Source of the DNA: Candidatus Undinarchaeota archaeon
GTDB lineage: Archaea; Undinarchaeota; Undinarchaeia; Undinarchaeales; UBA543
DNA: 40,182 bases
Direction of reading: 5' to 3'
NCBI GenBank assembly: GCA_964567575.1
Contig: CAZMMZ010000008.1
Location: forward strand, 9,960-50,141
Position numbers and translations under genes: made by a program
Notes under the pieces: model-generated
Told to the model about the DNA's origin: nothing
Database searches by the model: none
The model's input: only the letters and a program-made list of their open reading frames with translations
Part shown: positions 27,687-36,404 of the stretch, piece by piece
Layout: each line of letters starts with the position of its first letter
Numbering within the stretch: the stretch's first letter is position 1

Positions 27687-27727
27687 AATGTGAGGTTAAC
27701 CTCACATTTTGTGATGTTAACATTACA
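27687..27727. repeat. Two related tandem palindromes between convergent genes
   Basis: AATGTGAGGTTAACCTCACATT (27687-27708, perfect 22-bp palindrome) and TGTGATGTTAACATTACA (27710-27727, one mismatch). Confidence 0.8.
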
Positions 27728-28808
27728 TTTTATATCTTAAAATCGCTGCAGCGCCACCAAGATTTTTAATTTGCTGACCTTCGCGTGTTTCTAGAGAAAG
27801 TAATTCGAATTTTGAGCCTGCATCTTGTGCTAGTTTCTCATATTCTTCAATAAGTGCATCTTCAGAATCTTCTGAAAGCATTGCAGTTTCAACAGCGCCT
27901 TGTGCTAAAGCACGTTTAACTTCTTCAACACCATATAAAGCAAGTCCGTCATCTTTTCCAAGATGGTCTAGGAATTTCGCAACAAGATTTCTTTCTTTTG
28001 TTATTTCAGCTTCTGCAATAATATCTTTAGATTTTTCTAAAAGTTCTGTAATTCCGGTCTCACCTGTATAACCAATATCCAGCACCCCAATAACTTTTTT
28101 CTTTATATGAGTTTCAAGGTTTCCTTCATCCATAAATTCTTCTTTTGTTGGTCCAGGGCCTCCAACAAGAATTCCTCTAAGGTCTTTAATATCTCTGAAA
28201 GTAGTATTTGCAACGTCAGCAATTTTTCTGTAAAACTCTTTTGCCATTCCTGCAATAACACGCTCGAAACGCTGAGCAGATTGACCACCAGCACGGAACT
28301 TTCCCGGGATTAATGAGTCAAAACTCTTCACAATTTCATAGCGCTTTCCTTTTAACAACGCAACATCAGCGTGTTGCCTTTCAACAACCACAATACCGTA
28401 TGTTTCAACATCCTCAAGCATTTCTTCAAGAGGTTCCATTACGAATTTCTGTGAGCATCTGTATAAATTTAAATTAAGTGGTCGTGGGGGTGTGATAGAT
28501 ACTATTGTAAAATCTTCTTTACCTTCTTGTTCTGAAACATTTCCACAAAAAATTGCAATTCCATTTTTAGGTGTTCTTTTTAAAAGTTTTAAATGTTGAA
28601 GAATTTTAGTTAAAGCAGTTGTAACATTCTTACGTGTGGTAGCGCTTTTAATATTAACGGCTGTTCCTTGCTCATCAGAAAGTCTACGTGTAACTTTATC
28701 TAAATTATAACCGTCTGCTGCATAAACTGTAATAAGTTCTGTATGACGTCCTCTATATGAAGTCAATTCTTTCAGCTTCTTTTTGAGATCTCTCATTTCA
28801 TCTGTCAT
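27723..28808 (-). CDS. prf1: Peptide chain release factor aRF1 (short form)
   Basis: NIKS, YRCSQKF and GGQ motifs. 361 aa. Confidence 0.96.
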   Translation of the reverse strand: MTDEMRDLKKKLKELTSYRGRHTELITVYAADGYNLDKVTRRLSDEQGTAVNIKSATTRKNVTTALTKILQHLKLLKRTPKNGIAIFCGNVSEQEGKEDFTIVSITPPRPLNLNLYRCSQKFVMEPLEEMLEDVETYGIVVVERQHADVALLKGKRYEIVKSFDSLIPGKFRAGGQSAQRFERVIAGMAKEFYRKIADVANTTFRDIKDLRGILVGGPGPTKEEFMDEGNLETHIKKKVIGVLDIGYTGETGITELLEKSKDIIAEAEITKERNLVAKFLDHLGKDDGLALYGVEEVKRALAQGAVETAMLSEDSEDALIEEYEKLAQDAGSKFELLSLETREGQQIKNLGGAAAILRYKM

Positions 28809-31249
28809 TCTTCTTTCTCGATTTCTACGTATATTTCAACAGGAAGCTCGCATTTTACTTTCTCTCCGTTTCCTTTTCCAAATTTAAGAGCCCCTGCTCT
28901 GGAAACGCCTTGTAAATCTAATTTAAACATTTCTATTACTTCTTTTAATTCAGAATCTTTTGTGTCAATAGAAATTGTTTTGACTTCTTTGCCAAGAGAA
29001 ATTCCGTTTTCTTGTTTGTATTGGCGGATTGAAGCAATTAATGTTTTCAAAGTTTCACCAGCCTTTTCAATTGCTTCATCTGGTTCTCCTGCGTCTGGCC
29101 ATTTGCAAATATGAATGCTCTTTGCTTTTTCAAATTTATTAAAATACATTTGATAAATTTCTTCAGTAACGTAAGGCATTATTGGTGCAAAGAGTTTGAG
29201 TATTGTTGAAGCAACTGTGTAAAGAGTATACTGCGCTGCTTCTTTTCCACCTTTTCCATATTTCTCTGGATTGTAAATTCTATCTTTAACAATTTCAAGA
29301 TAATAATCGCAGAATTCATGCCAGAATAATTTTTCTGTTTCTAGTTTTGCTTTTGAATATTCATATTTCTCAAAAGATTCTGTTGCGAATTTAATAACTG
29401 AATTAAGTCGTGAAAGAATCCATTTATCAACTTCTCGAAGTTTTGGTTTCTTTCCTGGTTTGTAACCTTCTAATTGCATTATTGCAAATTTACTAGCATT
29501 GAAAAGTTTAGTTGCGAATTTTAATCCTGTTGATAAATCTTTTTCTTGGAATGACAAGTCTTCACCCAGTGAAGAACCAGCTGCCCAAAAGCGTAACGCG
29601 TCAGCACTGTATTTTTCAATCATTTCATGTGGATCAACAACATTTCCTAAACTCTTTGACATTTTCTTTCCGTGAGGGTCAAGAGCCCAGCCACTTATCA
29701 TAACATCTTTCCAAGGATTTTTGTGTTCATGCATTTGCGCTTTAACAACAGTGTTGAACAACCAGAATGTAATAATGTCGTGAGCTTGTGGACGTAAATT
29801 CATAGGATAAATTTTGTCAAATTGTTTTGGGAATAATTCCACTGCAAGTTTTGGAGTAAGAGATGAGGTTGCCCAAGTATCCAGAACATCTTTTTCTGGT
29901 TCGAATTCTTTTGAACCGCATTTACAAGCTTTCTTTGGTTTATCTTTCAGTGGATCAATTGGTAAATCTTTTTCATCAGGCAAAAGCACTTCTCCACATT
30001 TTTTACAATACCAAACTGGAATTGGAACACCATAAAAGCGTTGTCTTGAGATACACCAATCCCATTGCAGACCTTCGACCCAATTCAGATATCTGTTTAT
30101 CATATGTTTTGGATACCAATTTAATTTTTCTCCAGCAACACGAAGATCTTCTTTAATATCAAGATATTTTATGAACCATTGTTTTGAATTAATAATTTCA
30201 ACAGGAGTTCCACAACGTTCATGAACATTAACAGGATGTTTTATTGGTTTTTGATTTACAAGCAATTTTTCTTTTTCTAAATCTTCAATTATTGCTTTGC
30301 GTGCTTCTCCAATTTTCATTCCAGAATATTTGCCTGCTTGTTTTGTCATTTTTCCTTTTGCAGTTATGCTCATAACAAGTGGCAAGTTGTGTGCTTTGTA
30401 CCATTCAATATCTGTTTGATCTCCAAATGTACAGCACATAACAATTCCAGTTCCTTTTTCCATATCAACGCGTTTATCTTCGCGAATTTCAACTTCAATA
30501 TCAAATAGTGGAACTTTTGCTTTCTTTCCAATTAATTTTTTATAACGAGAATCGTCTGGATGTGCGAAAATCGCAACGCAGCTTGGTAGTAATTCTGGGC
30601 GCGTTGTTGCAATAACAAGGTCTTTTCCATTTTCAAGTTTGAAAATAATATCATTAAAAGTACTGTCAAGTTCTTTATCAACAAGTTCTACTTGAGCAAT
30701 AGCCATGTGACATTCCGGACACCACATTGTTGGAGCTTCTTTTTGATATTCTCTGCCGCTATTGTACAAATCAATAAAAGATTTCTGAGAAATTTTTTGA
30801 GAATGTTTGTTAATTGTTGTGTAATAAATATTATAATCTGCAGAAATTCCAATTTTTCTCCAATCTGCTGTGTATTTTGGACGCAATTCTTTTTCAAGAG
30901 TTGTAAGACAAAATTTTACAAATTCTTCACGAGACATATCATTATGATTAATCTTTTTTTCTCGTTCTATTAATCGCTCTGTTGCAAGACCATTATCATC
31001 TGTTCCAAAAGGATAGAACATATTGAATCCTTGCATACGTTTGAAGCGAGCAACAAAGTCCATTTGTGAATAAGAAAAGGCATGGCCTATATGCATGCGC
31101 CCAGAAACCGTTGGCGGCGGCGTATCAATTGAATAGATTTCTTTTTTGCTATTTGGATCAAATCTGAAGATGTCCTCATCTTCCCACCACTTTGCCCATT
31201 TAGGCTCAGCTTCTTTTGCATCATATCTTTTTGGTAATTCTTTTTTCAT
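28805..31249 (-). CDS. valS: Valine--tRNA ligase, archaeal type
   Basis: DTPPPTVSGRMHIGH, editing domain (ATTRPELL, GTGIVMCCTFGDQTD), DWCISRQR, KMSKS. ATG at 31249. Confidence 0.97.
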   Translation of the reverse strand: MKKELPKRYDAKEAEPKWAKWWEDEDIFRFDPNSKKEIYSIDTPPPTVSGRMHIGHAFSYSQMDFVARFKRMQGFNMFYPFGTDDNGLATERLIEREKKINHNDMSREEFVKFCLTTLEKELRPKYTADWRKIGISADYNIYYTTINKHSQKISQKSFIDLYNSGREYQKEAPTMWCPECHMAIAQVELVDKELDSTFNDIIFKLENGKDLVIATTRPELLPSCVAIFAHPDDSRYKKLIGKKAKVPLFDIEVEIREDKRVDMEKGTGIVMCCTFGDQTDIEWYKAHNLPLVMSITAKGKMTKQAGKYSGMKIGEARKAIIEDLEKEKLLVNQKPIKHPVNVHERCGTPVEIINSKQWFIKYLDIKEDLRVAGEKLNWYPKHMINRYLNWVEGLQWDWCISRQRFYGVPIPVWYCKKCGEVLLPDEKDLPIDPLKDKPKKACKCGSKEFEPEKDVLDTWATSSLTPKLAVELFPKQFDKIYPMNLRPQAHDIITFWLFNTVVKAQMHEHKNPWKDVMISGWALDPHGKKMSKSLGNVVDPHEMIEKYSADALRFWAAGSSLGEDLSFQEKDLSTGLKFATKLFNASKFAIMQLEGYKPGKKPKLREVDKWILSRLNSVIKFATESFEKYEYSKAKLETEKLFWHEFCDYYLEIVKDRIYNPEKYGKGGKEAAQYTLYTVASTILKLFAPIMPYVTEEIYQMYFNKFEKAKSIHICKWPDAGEPDEAIEKAGETLKTLIASIRQYKQENGISLGKEVKTISIDTKDSELKEVIEMFKLDLQGVSRAGALKFGKGNGEKVKCELPVEIYVEIEKEE

Positions 31250-31349
31250 TAGACCCCAACTCCACAGCAATCAAAACTGTGAAAAAGCAAAGCTAGATCC
31301 CCTCATGGGGGTCATACGACAACCATTACATTTGTTTTCATTTCTAGCT
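31250..31349 (-). promoter_or_regulatory. About 100-nt structured 5' leader of valS (putative attenuator)
   Basis: BRE/TATA GAAAAAC-TTATAAAG at 31385-31371 predicts a TSS near 31349. Contains a Val-rich uORF and several mutually exclusive stems. Confidence 0.7.
31312..31341 (-). CDS. Putative valS leader peptide MKTNVMVVV*
   Basis: ATG AAA ACA AAT GTA ATG GTT GTC GTA TGA. 4 of 9 codons are Val, three in tandem before the stop. Confidence 0.7.
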   Translation of the reverse strand: MKTNVMVVV

Positions 31350-31396
31350 AAGACTGTATTGAAATAGTTACTTTATAAGTTTTTCAGATATTGTTT

Positions 31397-32455
31397 TTAA
31401 TGAAATCCAGGGTCACAGCAACAGGAATTAAATGGTAGTTCTTCATTAATACATTCCATATCTGCCATTGGATTTGCTAAATAAAATCCAAATTCTCCTT
31501 GGGAACCTGCACAATCTGCCCATGGTTCTGGTTCTGCTATATCTCCGCAGAATCCGCCTGGAGAGCGTGCATCTAAATAACAATTACCTTCACAACTCAT
31601 TGGATCTGCCTCTTTACATTTACCAGCCGAACAATACCAATTCTCTCCATATTCTTCATCACATATTAGTGGATCATTATCATTACTTGCACACATATCA
31701 TTATCATTACAATAATATTCAACTAAACCACCAACATCACAATAATCAGTTGAAGCTCCTTCAACATCTGTACAAGTTCCTTTTTGTAGATAATTAATTC
31801 CTCCATCTGTATCCGTACAAGCTGCTTCAGGAAAATCATCTGCATCATTTGGATCTGTTCCTGCTTCATATTCTTCTAAGTCAGTCCAACCATCTCCATC
31901 ATGATCTTGATTATTTGGAATACATCTTCCCATGTAGCATTTTCCTTCTGGGGCACAAACTTGAACCATTTCACTACACATTCCACTTTCGTCATTTGAA
32001 CACCAGAATTCAGTTAACATATCTCCAAAGTTTCCATCAAAACAAACATCATGATGCGATGCTCCTAAAATATCAATACAATTTCCTGCTATAATATAGA
32101 CTTCGCCATTATCTGAATCCGAACAAACTGGTGGAACTTCTGGTTCATCATCTCCATTTTCTGGATCTTCCTCTTCTATGGGATCTTCTTCAATTGGTTC
32201 CTCTTCAGGTTTTTCTTCTTTTGGTTTTTCTCCAGGAGTGTCTTTTTCTTTTTCTGGTATTATTTCATCACCTTCAATTTCAAACCCAGTTCCAGAATCT
32301 CCTGATATAATTTCTGTTCGCCTGTCAAGTATGATTTGATATTGTGGATACATTTTACCAAGGACAAATGCACCAGTAATTAATGCAGCTATAATTGTAA
32401 CAGCGAGTGTAATAAAAATAATTATTTTCAAAGTAGATTCTGTTTCTTTTTTCAT
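31397..32455 (-). CDS. Membrane-anchored acidic Cys-rich surface protein
   Basis: N-terminal TM, E/P/D-rich stalk, two Cx(D)(S/T)DxG repeats flanking a DHDGDGWTDLEEYEAGTDP Ca-binding-type motif, Cys-rich C-terminus. Confidence 0.8.
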   Translation of the reverse strand: MKKETESTLKIIIFITLAVTIIAALITGAFVLGKMYPQYQIILDRRTEIISGDSGTGFEIEGDEIIPEKEKDTPGEKPKEEKPEEEPIEEDPIEEEDPENGDDEPEVPPVCSDSDNGEVYIIAGNCIDILGASHHDVCFDGNFGDMLTEFWCSNDESGMCSEMVQVCAPEGKCYMGRCIPNNQDHDGDGWTDLEEYEAGTDPNDADDFPEAACTDTDGGINYLQKGTCTDVEGASTDYCDVGGLVEYYCNDNDMCASNDNDPLICDEEYGENWYCSAGKCKEADPMSCEGNCYLDARSPGGFCGDIAEPEPWADCAGSQGEFGFYLANPMADMECINEELPFNSCCCDPGFH

Positions 32456-32521
32456 CAACCAGATTATTAATTTTAACTATAAAAAGGTAGTTATTTATAC
32501 ACTTTAGTATAACTCGAAATA

Positions 32522-35442: not shown

Positions 35443-35529
35443 GCGGGGGTGGCACAATCTGGTAATGCGCTAGCCTGCTAAGTTAGTTTCCGCAAGGATT
35501 TGCCGGTTCAAATCCGGCTCCCCGCGCCA
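35443..35529 (+). tRNA. tRNA-Ser(GCT)
   Basis: Acceptor GCGGGGG/TCCCCGC, anticodon arm CTAGC-CTGCTAA-GTTAG, long variable arm TCC-GCAA-GGA, T arm GCCGG-TTCAAAT-CCGGC, discriminator G, encoded CCA. Confidence 0.95.
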
Positions 35530-35536
35530 TATTCAT

Positions 35537-35612
35537 GGGCCCGTGGTCTAGTCGCTATGACGTCTCCCTTACACGGAGAAGTTCACAGGTTCAAATCCTG
35601 TTGGGCCCACCA
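35537..35612 (+). tRNA. tRNA-Val(TAC)
   Basis: Acceptor GGGCCCG/TGGGCCC, anticodon arm TCTCC-CTTACAC-GGAGA, T arm ACAGG-TTCAAAT-CCTGT, discriminator A, encoded CCA. Confidence 0.93.
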
Positions 35613-36129: not shown

Positions 36130-36404
36130 GGCACAGCTAGGCTGGGGAATTAGCCCTACCTTGTTACCGCAAACGGGCTTTACGGCGGAGCTGAATGTCT
36201 TAAAGAGGTTTAGTAGCGGAATGTCGTCTTGTGTTTTGGCGTCGAAGCATCGCCCTGTGGGATCGACATTCTTGTGAATCGGGTCAGGCCAGGAATGGAG
36301 CAGCCCTAAGCGAGATTTGTTGATGCTCATAGCCAGCGGTGTGGAGTCATTACGCAAGGTTAAGCGGCATTTTTCTATTAAATCCATTTGAGGATGCTGT
36401 GCTA
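36130..36404 (+). ncRNA. ffs: Signal recognition particle RNA (7S), archaeal-type Alu domain
   Basis: Helix 8 GGG-TCAGG-CCA-GGAA-TGG-AGCAG-CCC (36281-36306). Alu helices 3/4 with AGCCC/GGGCT loop-loop pairing and UGU turn. Helix 1 GGCACAGC/GCTGTGCT. TATA TTTATAAG at 36100-36107, T-run after the 3' end. Confidence 0.93.

Follow-up and report, generated by a model that had tools for sequence, protein, structure and literature searches.

In our judgement, the leader of valS, the gene for valine--tRNA ligase, in the window (the whole stretch of 40,182 nucleotides analysed here) is probably a ribosome-read sensor of Val-tRNA charging, most likely one that sets how far transcripts read through into valS and the release factor gene aRF1 behind it. 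That a ribosome reads the leader as a measure of tRNA charging is very likely, judging from the match between the codon that dominates a small upstream open reading frame (uORF) and the gene that follows it. For the output of the sensor, the sequences lead us to favour transcriptional over translational control. The source genome of the window (G000) is a metagenome-assembled genome of 745 kb in 18 contigs from the Undinarchaeota, which are DPANN by NCBI taxonomy and were represented by 17 species genomes in the set examined. The window itself points to an archaeon through its SRP RNA of archaeal type and its aRF1 gene. G001 and G002 denote the other two species of its genus, and G004 stands for a second family.

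The leader occupies a spacer of 147 nt on the minus strand, between the end of an ORF for a Cys-rich protein (31397) and the valS start codon (ATG, 31249-31247). From 5' to 3' the spacer holds a TATA-like box, the uORF, a hairpin (P2), a U-rich run and a second hairpin (P3) that overlaps a GGAG, and a longer-range stem (P1) encloses the uORF. The individual features, with the two genes downstream, are as follows.

31371-31378, minus strand: TATA-like box TTATAAAG, the putative leader promoter seen in the sequence, with a predicted transcription start at about 31348
31343-31349, minus strand: 5' arm of P1, AGCUAGA, where the transcript is predicted to begin; both the MFE and the centroid structure pair it with 31291-31297
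31312-31341, minus strand: leader uORF, nine sense codons and TGA (ATG 31341-31339, TGA 31314-31312)
31299-31310, minus strand: P2 hairpin, CCCC and GGGG around an AUGA loop, just 3' of the uORF stop, from folds
31291-31297, minus strand: 3' arm of P1, UCUAGCU, from folds
31281-31290, minus strand: U tract UUGCUUUUUC directly 3' of P1, a candidate site of premature termination, seen in the sequence
31261-31283, minus strand: P3 hairpin, UUCACAG and CUGUGGA around a U-rich loop, from folds
31260-31263, minus strand: SD-like GGAG, 10 nt 5' of the valS AUG, seen in the sequence
28805-31249, minus strand: valS, valine--tRNA ligase, 814 aa (NCBIfam NF009687, 1082 bits against a cut-off of 738)
27723-28808, minus strand: aRF1 gene (TIGR03676, 415.8 bits against a cut-off of 234.7)

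Valine codons stand at positions 5, 7, 8 and 9 of the uORF, so that Val accounts for four of its last five codons. With the usual archaeal TATA spacing, transcription would start near 31348, about 7 nt 5' of the uORF AUG. Directly behind the 3' arm of P1 (31297-31291), the U tract reads TTGCTTTTTC from 31290 to 31281; its longest uninterrupted run is short (U5). Frameshifted read-through from the uORF into valS is excluded, as a TGA (31273-31271) lies in the valS frame before the AUG. The ValRS protein carries the Pfam domains tRNA-synt_1 and Anticodon_1. The start of aRF1 overlaps the valS stop by 4 nt; the two genes are probably co-transcribed, and the Val leader may govern the release factor too.

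Several neighbours of this unit deserve a record. The Cys-rich protein directly 5' of the leader (353 aa, 31397-32458, minus strand) has no Pfam family and only a sub-threshold match to the Amuc_1099 pilus-like family. At a distance of 4-5 kb from valS, the plus strand carries a tRNA-Ser(GCU)/tRNA-Val(UAC) pair (35443-35612) and the archaeal SRP RNA (36130-36403). ValRS proteins of CPR bacteria (Parcubacteria, Moranbacteria, Saccharibacteria and Nealsonbacteria; loci L086, L094, L097, L098, L101 and L103-L105) are 50-57% identical to the G000 enzyme, which suggests a transfer of ValRS between DPANN and CPR.

Folding of the G000 leader gave P1, P2 and P3 in both the MFE and the centroid structure. 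In P2, CCCC (31310-31307) pairs with GGGG (31302-31299); in P3, TTCACAG (31283-31277) pairs with CTGTGGA (31267-31261) with one U-G pair, and in an extended form of this hairpin the U tract is paired with the SD region. A sequence-only reading of the window had proposed these three pairings and a further one, and all four are present on the minus strand at the coordinates it gave. The further pairing, of GACCCC (31313-31308) with GGGGTC (31257-31252), was to link the uORF stop to the valS SD. The two segments are complementary, yet neither the MFE nor the centroid structure contains the pairing, none of G001, G002 and G004 shows an equivalent, and it never formed in folds constrained by a ribosome footprint. 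We therefore do not retain it as a switch.

As to significance, the 161-nt G000 region as a whole has a folding z-score of -0.14 and the P1 domain alone one of -1.62. A P1-like helix of 7 bp arose in 84 of 2000 shuffles of the G000 sequence (approximately 4%), in a test that scored the longest contiguous helix, is blind to bulged helices and gives modest significance per sequence. The evidence for structure from a single sequence is thus modest, and comparison with relatives provides much stronger evidence. Apart from a chance snoRNA hit at E 0.57, no Rfam family matched the leader at its gathering score or at E<=1, and a T-box or other known RNA family was rejected on this result. An anticodon-arm mimic of the thrS operator type was rejected as well, because the P3 loops (U7 in G001, U7C in G002, UUUUGAUUG in G000) do not include a Val anticodon.

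We compared the valS loci of 40 relatives and inspected the DNA upstream of each. Only four leaders are distinct, those of G000, G001, G002 and G004, whose ValRS proteins are 81-82% (G001 and G002) and 60% (G004) identical to that of G000; relatives with ValRS about 70% identical (P0004-P0006) were left out, and the copies of the G001 leader seen in metagenomes do not differ from it. All four leaders, from the three species of the genus and from G004, have a Val-rich uORF of nine codons at the equivalent site, with a TATA-like box 22-31 nt 5' of its AUG. Measured with this box to the predicted start, the 5' UTR of the uORF would be 0-7 nt long. The conserved uORF, together with the Ile and Cys leaders described below, supports the earlier proposal that the Val codons serve as a sensor read by the ribosome.

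The structure is conserved as well. The sequence-only reading had suggested covariation across relatives as a check, and both P1 and P2 covary in the individual folds of the four leaders; covariation was taken from these folds, as the MAFFT alignments of the leaders are not structure-aware and have the P1 arms offset. P1 reads AGCUAGA/UCUAGCU in G000 and G002 and AGCUAGU/ACUAGCU in G001, a compensatory change, while in G004 it reads UAUGAGC/GCUCAUA and contains the start codon of the uORF. A U-rich tail follows P1 in each of the four, so the terminator-like element of stem and U tract that had been read from G000 recurs in G001, G002 and G004 with compensatory changes. The pairing of the C-run with GGGG recurs as well: P2 is retained in G001 and G002, and in G004 it occupies the same position with its C and G strands swapped (CGGGU/GCCCG). 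The P1 domains of the four leaders have folding z-scores of -1.6, -2.8, -1.3 and -2.3.

P3 is another matter. Its core is conserved within the genus only (G001 and G002), and G004 lacks it. An SD is found in G000 (GGAG) and G002 (GGGAGG) and is absent from G001 and G004. The suggestion that P3 hides the SD therefore stands for G000 and G002, where the MFE folds place the SD inside the extended P3, but not as a general feature of the leader.

In families f4 and f5 there is no Val uORF, and a TATA-like box lies about 25 nt before the valS AUG. The same box position was seen in approximately 150 further valS loci from DPANN and CPR, among which no Val uORF was found apart from one uncertain case. 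In this case (L096, the archaeal MAG nzgw40), a 12-codon uORF with four Val codons lies about 90 nt 5' of valS, with a hairpin and then a T run behind it; by sequence it may be an independent example beyond the Undinarchaeota.

In G000 we searched the regions 5' of its 810 predicted genes for short intergenic uORFs in which a single amino acid predominates. Three uORFs stood out, and each matches what follows it: Val before valS, Ile before ileS, and Cys before tRNA-Cys and cysS. In short intergenic uORFs of the 810 upstream regions, runs of at least three codons for the same amino acid were found at one gene for Cys, two for Val and four for Ile. Because such runs are rare, three cognate matches are very unlikely to have arisen by chance. 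No cognate uORF was found before 11 other synthetase genes located in G000. A scan for a uORF with a flanking 6-bp helix and a T run, and a motif search allowing two mismatches, gave too much noise in so AT-rich a genome and were discarded. The two further leaders of G000 are these.

Contig C2, 5282-8450, minus strand: Ile leader, a 12-codon uORF predicted to be leaderless, with five Ile codons in a row (mostly AUA), then ileS
Contig C11, 2968-4667, plus strand: Cys leader, a 13-codon uORF with five consecutive Cys codons, then tRNA-Cys(GCA) and cysS

NCBIfam confirmed the identities of the downstream ValRS and IleRS in G000, and an intron-bearing tRNA-Ile(UAU) gene lies directly 3' of ileS. 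Ten of the order's 13 genomes, from four families, carry the Ile leader (loci L044-L053). Its uORFs have 11-15 codons, differ in length by whole codons with the frame kept, and are all preceded by a TATA-like box 24-26 nt 5' of the ATG. The Cys uORF of G000 lies 103 nt 5' of the sole tRNA-Cys gene, which is followed by cysS; between the tRNA gene and cysS, G001 and G004 carry an additional PALP (cysteine-synthase-like) gene. Cys leaders precede tRNA-Cys in nine genomes, including one family outside the order (L064, L066, L068, L074, L075 and L240-L243). They have uORFs of 9-13 codons, always in frame, and share a conserved CAUAGG motif 3' of the stop that pairs back into the uORF.

In family f2 (L010, L011, L013 and L051-L053), ileS, tRNA-Ile(UAU) and valS adjoin one another on the same strand, and the one leader peptide upstream combines codons for Ile and Val, which looks like a shared sensor for the two synthetases. 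Elsewhere in G000 (contig C4, 41569-41747, plus strand), an intron-bearing tRNA-Trp(CCA) gene lies directly 5' of a bacterial-type LeuRS gene, with no uORF.

We folded 14 leaders, the four of valS and 10 further leaders of the Ile and Cys type, from the 5' end of the RNA to the first U tract. All 14 form a closed domain whose outer helix pairs the 5' region of the uORF with a segment near the U tract and ends 0-6 nt before that tract; the z-scores of the domains range from -0.5 to -4.2. In three f2 ileS leaders the outer helix is built from three unrelated sequences, all of which pair, and within an inner helix of the ileS leaders four pairs have changed on both sides. The start codon of the uORF lies within this stem or next to it in the leaders of G004 valS and of ileS. 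A second conserved hairpin, whose U-rich loop holds the U tract, shares sequence with the 3' arm of the outer helix in leaders of the ileS and Cys type. After the Ile uORF (L044-L053) this second hairpin (GUGCUCC ... GGGGCAC, with a U/A-rich loop) is highly conserved and has one-sided changes only, so that it may be either an RNA or a DNA element. In f2 its loop lies 23-24 nt 5' of the ileS AUG and could double as the ileS TATA box; in f1, f3 and f4 there is a further TATA-like box nearer the ileS AUG.

For the valS leader we propose the following course of events. Transcription would begin about 7 nt 5' of the uORF AUG, and a ribosome would load on the 5' end as it emerges from the polymerase. 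The nascent RNA would then close P1 by pairing this 5' end with the segment just 3' of P2, with the uORF in the enclosed loop, and the U tract directly behind P1 would act as an archaeal termination signal. When Val-tRNA is plentiful, the ribosome would complete the nine codons and depart, P1 would close, and the U tract would halt many polymerases. Under a shortage of Val-tRNA, the ribosome would be held on the Val codons and P1 would be blocked, giving read-through and more ValRS. We infer the translation of the uORF, the termination at the U tract, the part of P1 in it and the sign of the response.

Termination of transcription is favoured as the output because every leader has its outer stem next to a U tract, because U tracts are a termination signal in archaea (PMC8716108), and because the Cys leader precedes a tRNA gene and masking of the SD is not conserved. 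A leader before a tRNA gene cannot act through SD masking. Against this output speak the short U tract of the valS leader in G000 and the T5 runs of that genome, which are no more than mildly enriched after genes (23%, compared with 14% inside genes). The part assigned to P1 is argued by bacterial analogy, since termination in model archaea has no need of an upstream hairpin (PMC8716108).

The geometry of the uORF constrains how such a switch could work. Its Val codons adjoin the stop, so that a stalled and a terminating ribosome differ in position by 3-9 nt only; the switch must accordingly rest on dwell time rather than on position. A footprint of -12 to +15 nt in the constrained folds leaves the P1 arms of the genus uncovered, and a block of P1 would therefore be steric. 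Neither the free nor the footprint-constrained folds of the valS leaders contain an antiterminator that competes with P1, and in this respect the valS leaders lack the mutually exclusive pair of structures that belongs to an attenuator. Three other marks were found: a leader ORF of cognate codons before the gene (Val, Ile and Cys), a frame that is kept in relatives, and a stem with an adjoining U tract between leader ORF and gene, in four valS and 10 further leaders.

We weighed other accounts of the same leaders. In one of them, the uORF senses charging and the output comes from factor-dependent termination or RNA decay instead of a P1 terminator: aCPSF1/FttA might gain access to the U tract, or a ribosome on the 5' end might set 5'-to-3' decay, and P1 would then do no more than sequester a 5'-terminal start codon. 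Archaeal termination at U tracts bound by aCPSF1, for which a hairpin is not strictly needed (PMC8716108), fits this account, as does a P1 that contains or abuts the start codon in the G004 valS and the ileS leaders, and a P1 3' arm that in the ileS and Cys leaders overlaps a second hairpin with the U tract in its loop. The outer helix is, however, strictly adjacent to the U tract in 14/14 leaders, which is the geometry of a hairpin-type terminator, and we regard this account as unlikely. Somewhat less likely still is translational attenuation, under which transcripts always reach valS and a stalled ribosome exposes an SD masked by P3 and the U tract. Bacteria offer a precedent in the short poly-Cys ORFs of mycobacteria (bioRxiv 10.1101/834739), and the masking is predicted in G000 and G002. 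Footprints placed at codon 7, codon 9 or the stop nevertheless leave P3 and the masked SD of these two leaders unchanged, contrary to the earlier idea that a stalled ribosome frees the SD. With G001 and G004 devoid of an SD, G004 devoid of P3, the uORF-SD pairing not conserved and the sister Cys leader placed before a tRNA gene, little speaks for this output, and unmasking of a ribosome-binding site in the manner of the mycobacterial Cys ribulon was rejected on the same footprint and SD results.

It is also conceivable that nothing is regulated here, and that the uORF arose by chance in an AT-rich spacer or represents an independent small gene or RNA that has its own terminator and happens to adjoin valS. 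The near-zero z-score of the whole region and the frequency of 7-bp helices in shuffles would agree with this. So would ileS, which seems to own a TATA-like box near its AUG, such that the Ile uORF unit could be a separate transcript. Against it stand the cognate matches at three loci of one genome, kept across families despite sequence divergence, and a reading frame that survives length changes of whole codons. At valS, moreover, a TATA-like box at promoter spacing is absent between uORF and gene, and two of the three genus members have an SD. We consider an absence of regulation very improbable.

Leader-peptide attenuation is a textbook bacterial mechanism that needs coupled transcription and translation, and full-text literature searches found no published case of an archaeal leader-peptide attenuator. 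On balance we lean towards the view that true attenuation of transcription by ribosomes occurs in archaea: within one order of the Undinarchaeota, mini-genes that are leaderless and carry runs of Val, Ile or Cys codons would gauge charged tRNA, and the enclosing stem with its U tract would decide between termination and read-through into a synthetase or tRNA gene. If so, a Pol II-like polymerase can terminate with the help of a hairpin and in a manner coupled to translation, and a DPANN cell that depends on a host adjusts its charging machinery to whatever amino acids reach it. The leaders would point to a control of synthetase and tRNA supply without a protein regulator in genome-reduced DPANN that rely on amino acids from outside. 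A compact leader with Ile and Cys parallels in one 0.75-Mb genome also offers a concrete test of ribosome-steered termination in archaea and of what an RNA stem contributes to it.

The enterobacterial trp, his, leu and ilv attenuators consist of four segments, of which 2:3 form the antiterminator and 3:4 the terminator. As proposed for valS, the position of a ribosome on cognate codons sets the fate of the terminator; the valS leader differs in having one long-range stem, P1, with a U tract, which the ribosome itself would block. The T-box riboswitch of Gram-positive synthetase genes recognises uncharged tRNA by direct binding and lacks a leader peptide. Its task would be the same, namely to sense tRNA charging and raise synthetase levels via read-through of a leader terminator, whereas the valS leader has a leader peptide and no T-box match in Rfam.

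Closer in kind are the E. coli pheST attenuator with its Phe-rich PheM leader peptide and the leuS and trpS attenuators predicted in Streptomyces (PMC1262725). These share with the valS leader a short ORF of cognate codons before a synthetase gene, then a stem and U tract, and the logic by which scarce charged tRNA leads to more enzyme. Unlike them, the valS leader is archaeal: its promoter is of the TATA/TBP type, and the polymerase is Pol II-like and not known to need hairpins for termination. The uORF of the valS leader is predicted to be leaderless or nearly so, its terminator-like stem encloses the whole uORF, and no separate antiterminator hairpin is seen. In the mycobacterial 'Cys ribulon', a stalled ribosome on leaderless poly-cysteine short ORFs unmasks an SD, which constitutes translational attenuation (bioRxiv 10.1101/834739). 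Here the likeness lies in sensory short ORFs, predicted to be leaderless, with runs of a single codon and in the use of one design at several loci, through which a single amino acid would draw a collective response, and the Cys leader of G000 is a close look-alike. In the Undinarchaeota, by contrast, SD masking is not conserved, one leader stands before a tRNA gene, and the targets are synthetases and a tRNA rather than cysteine metabolism alone.
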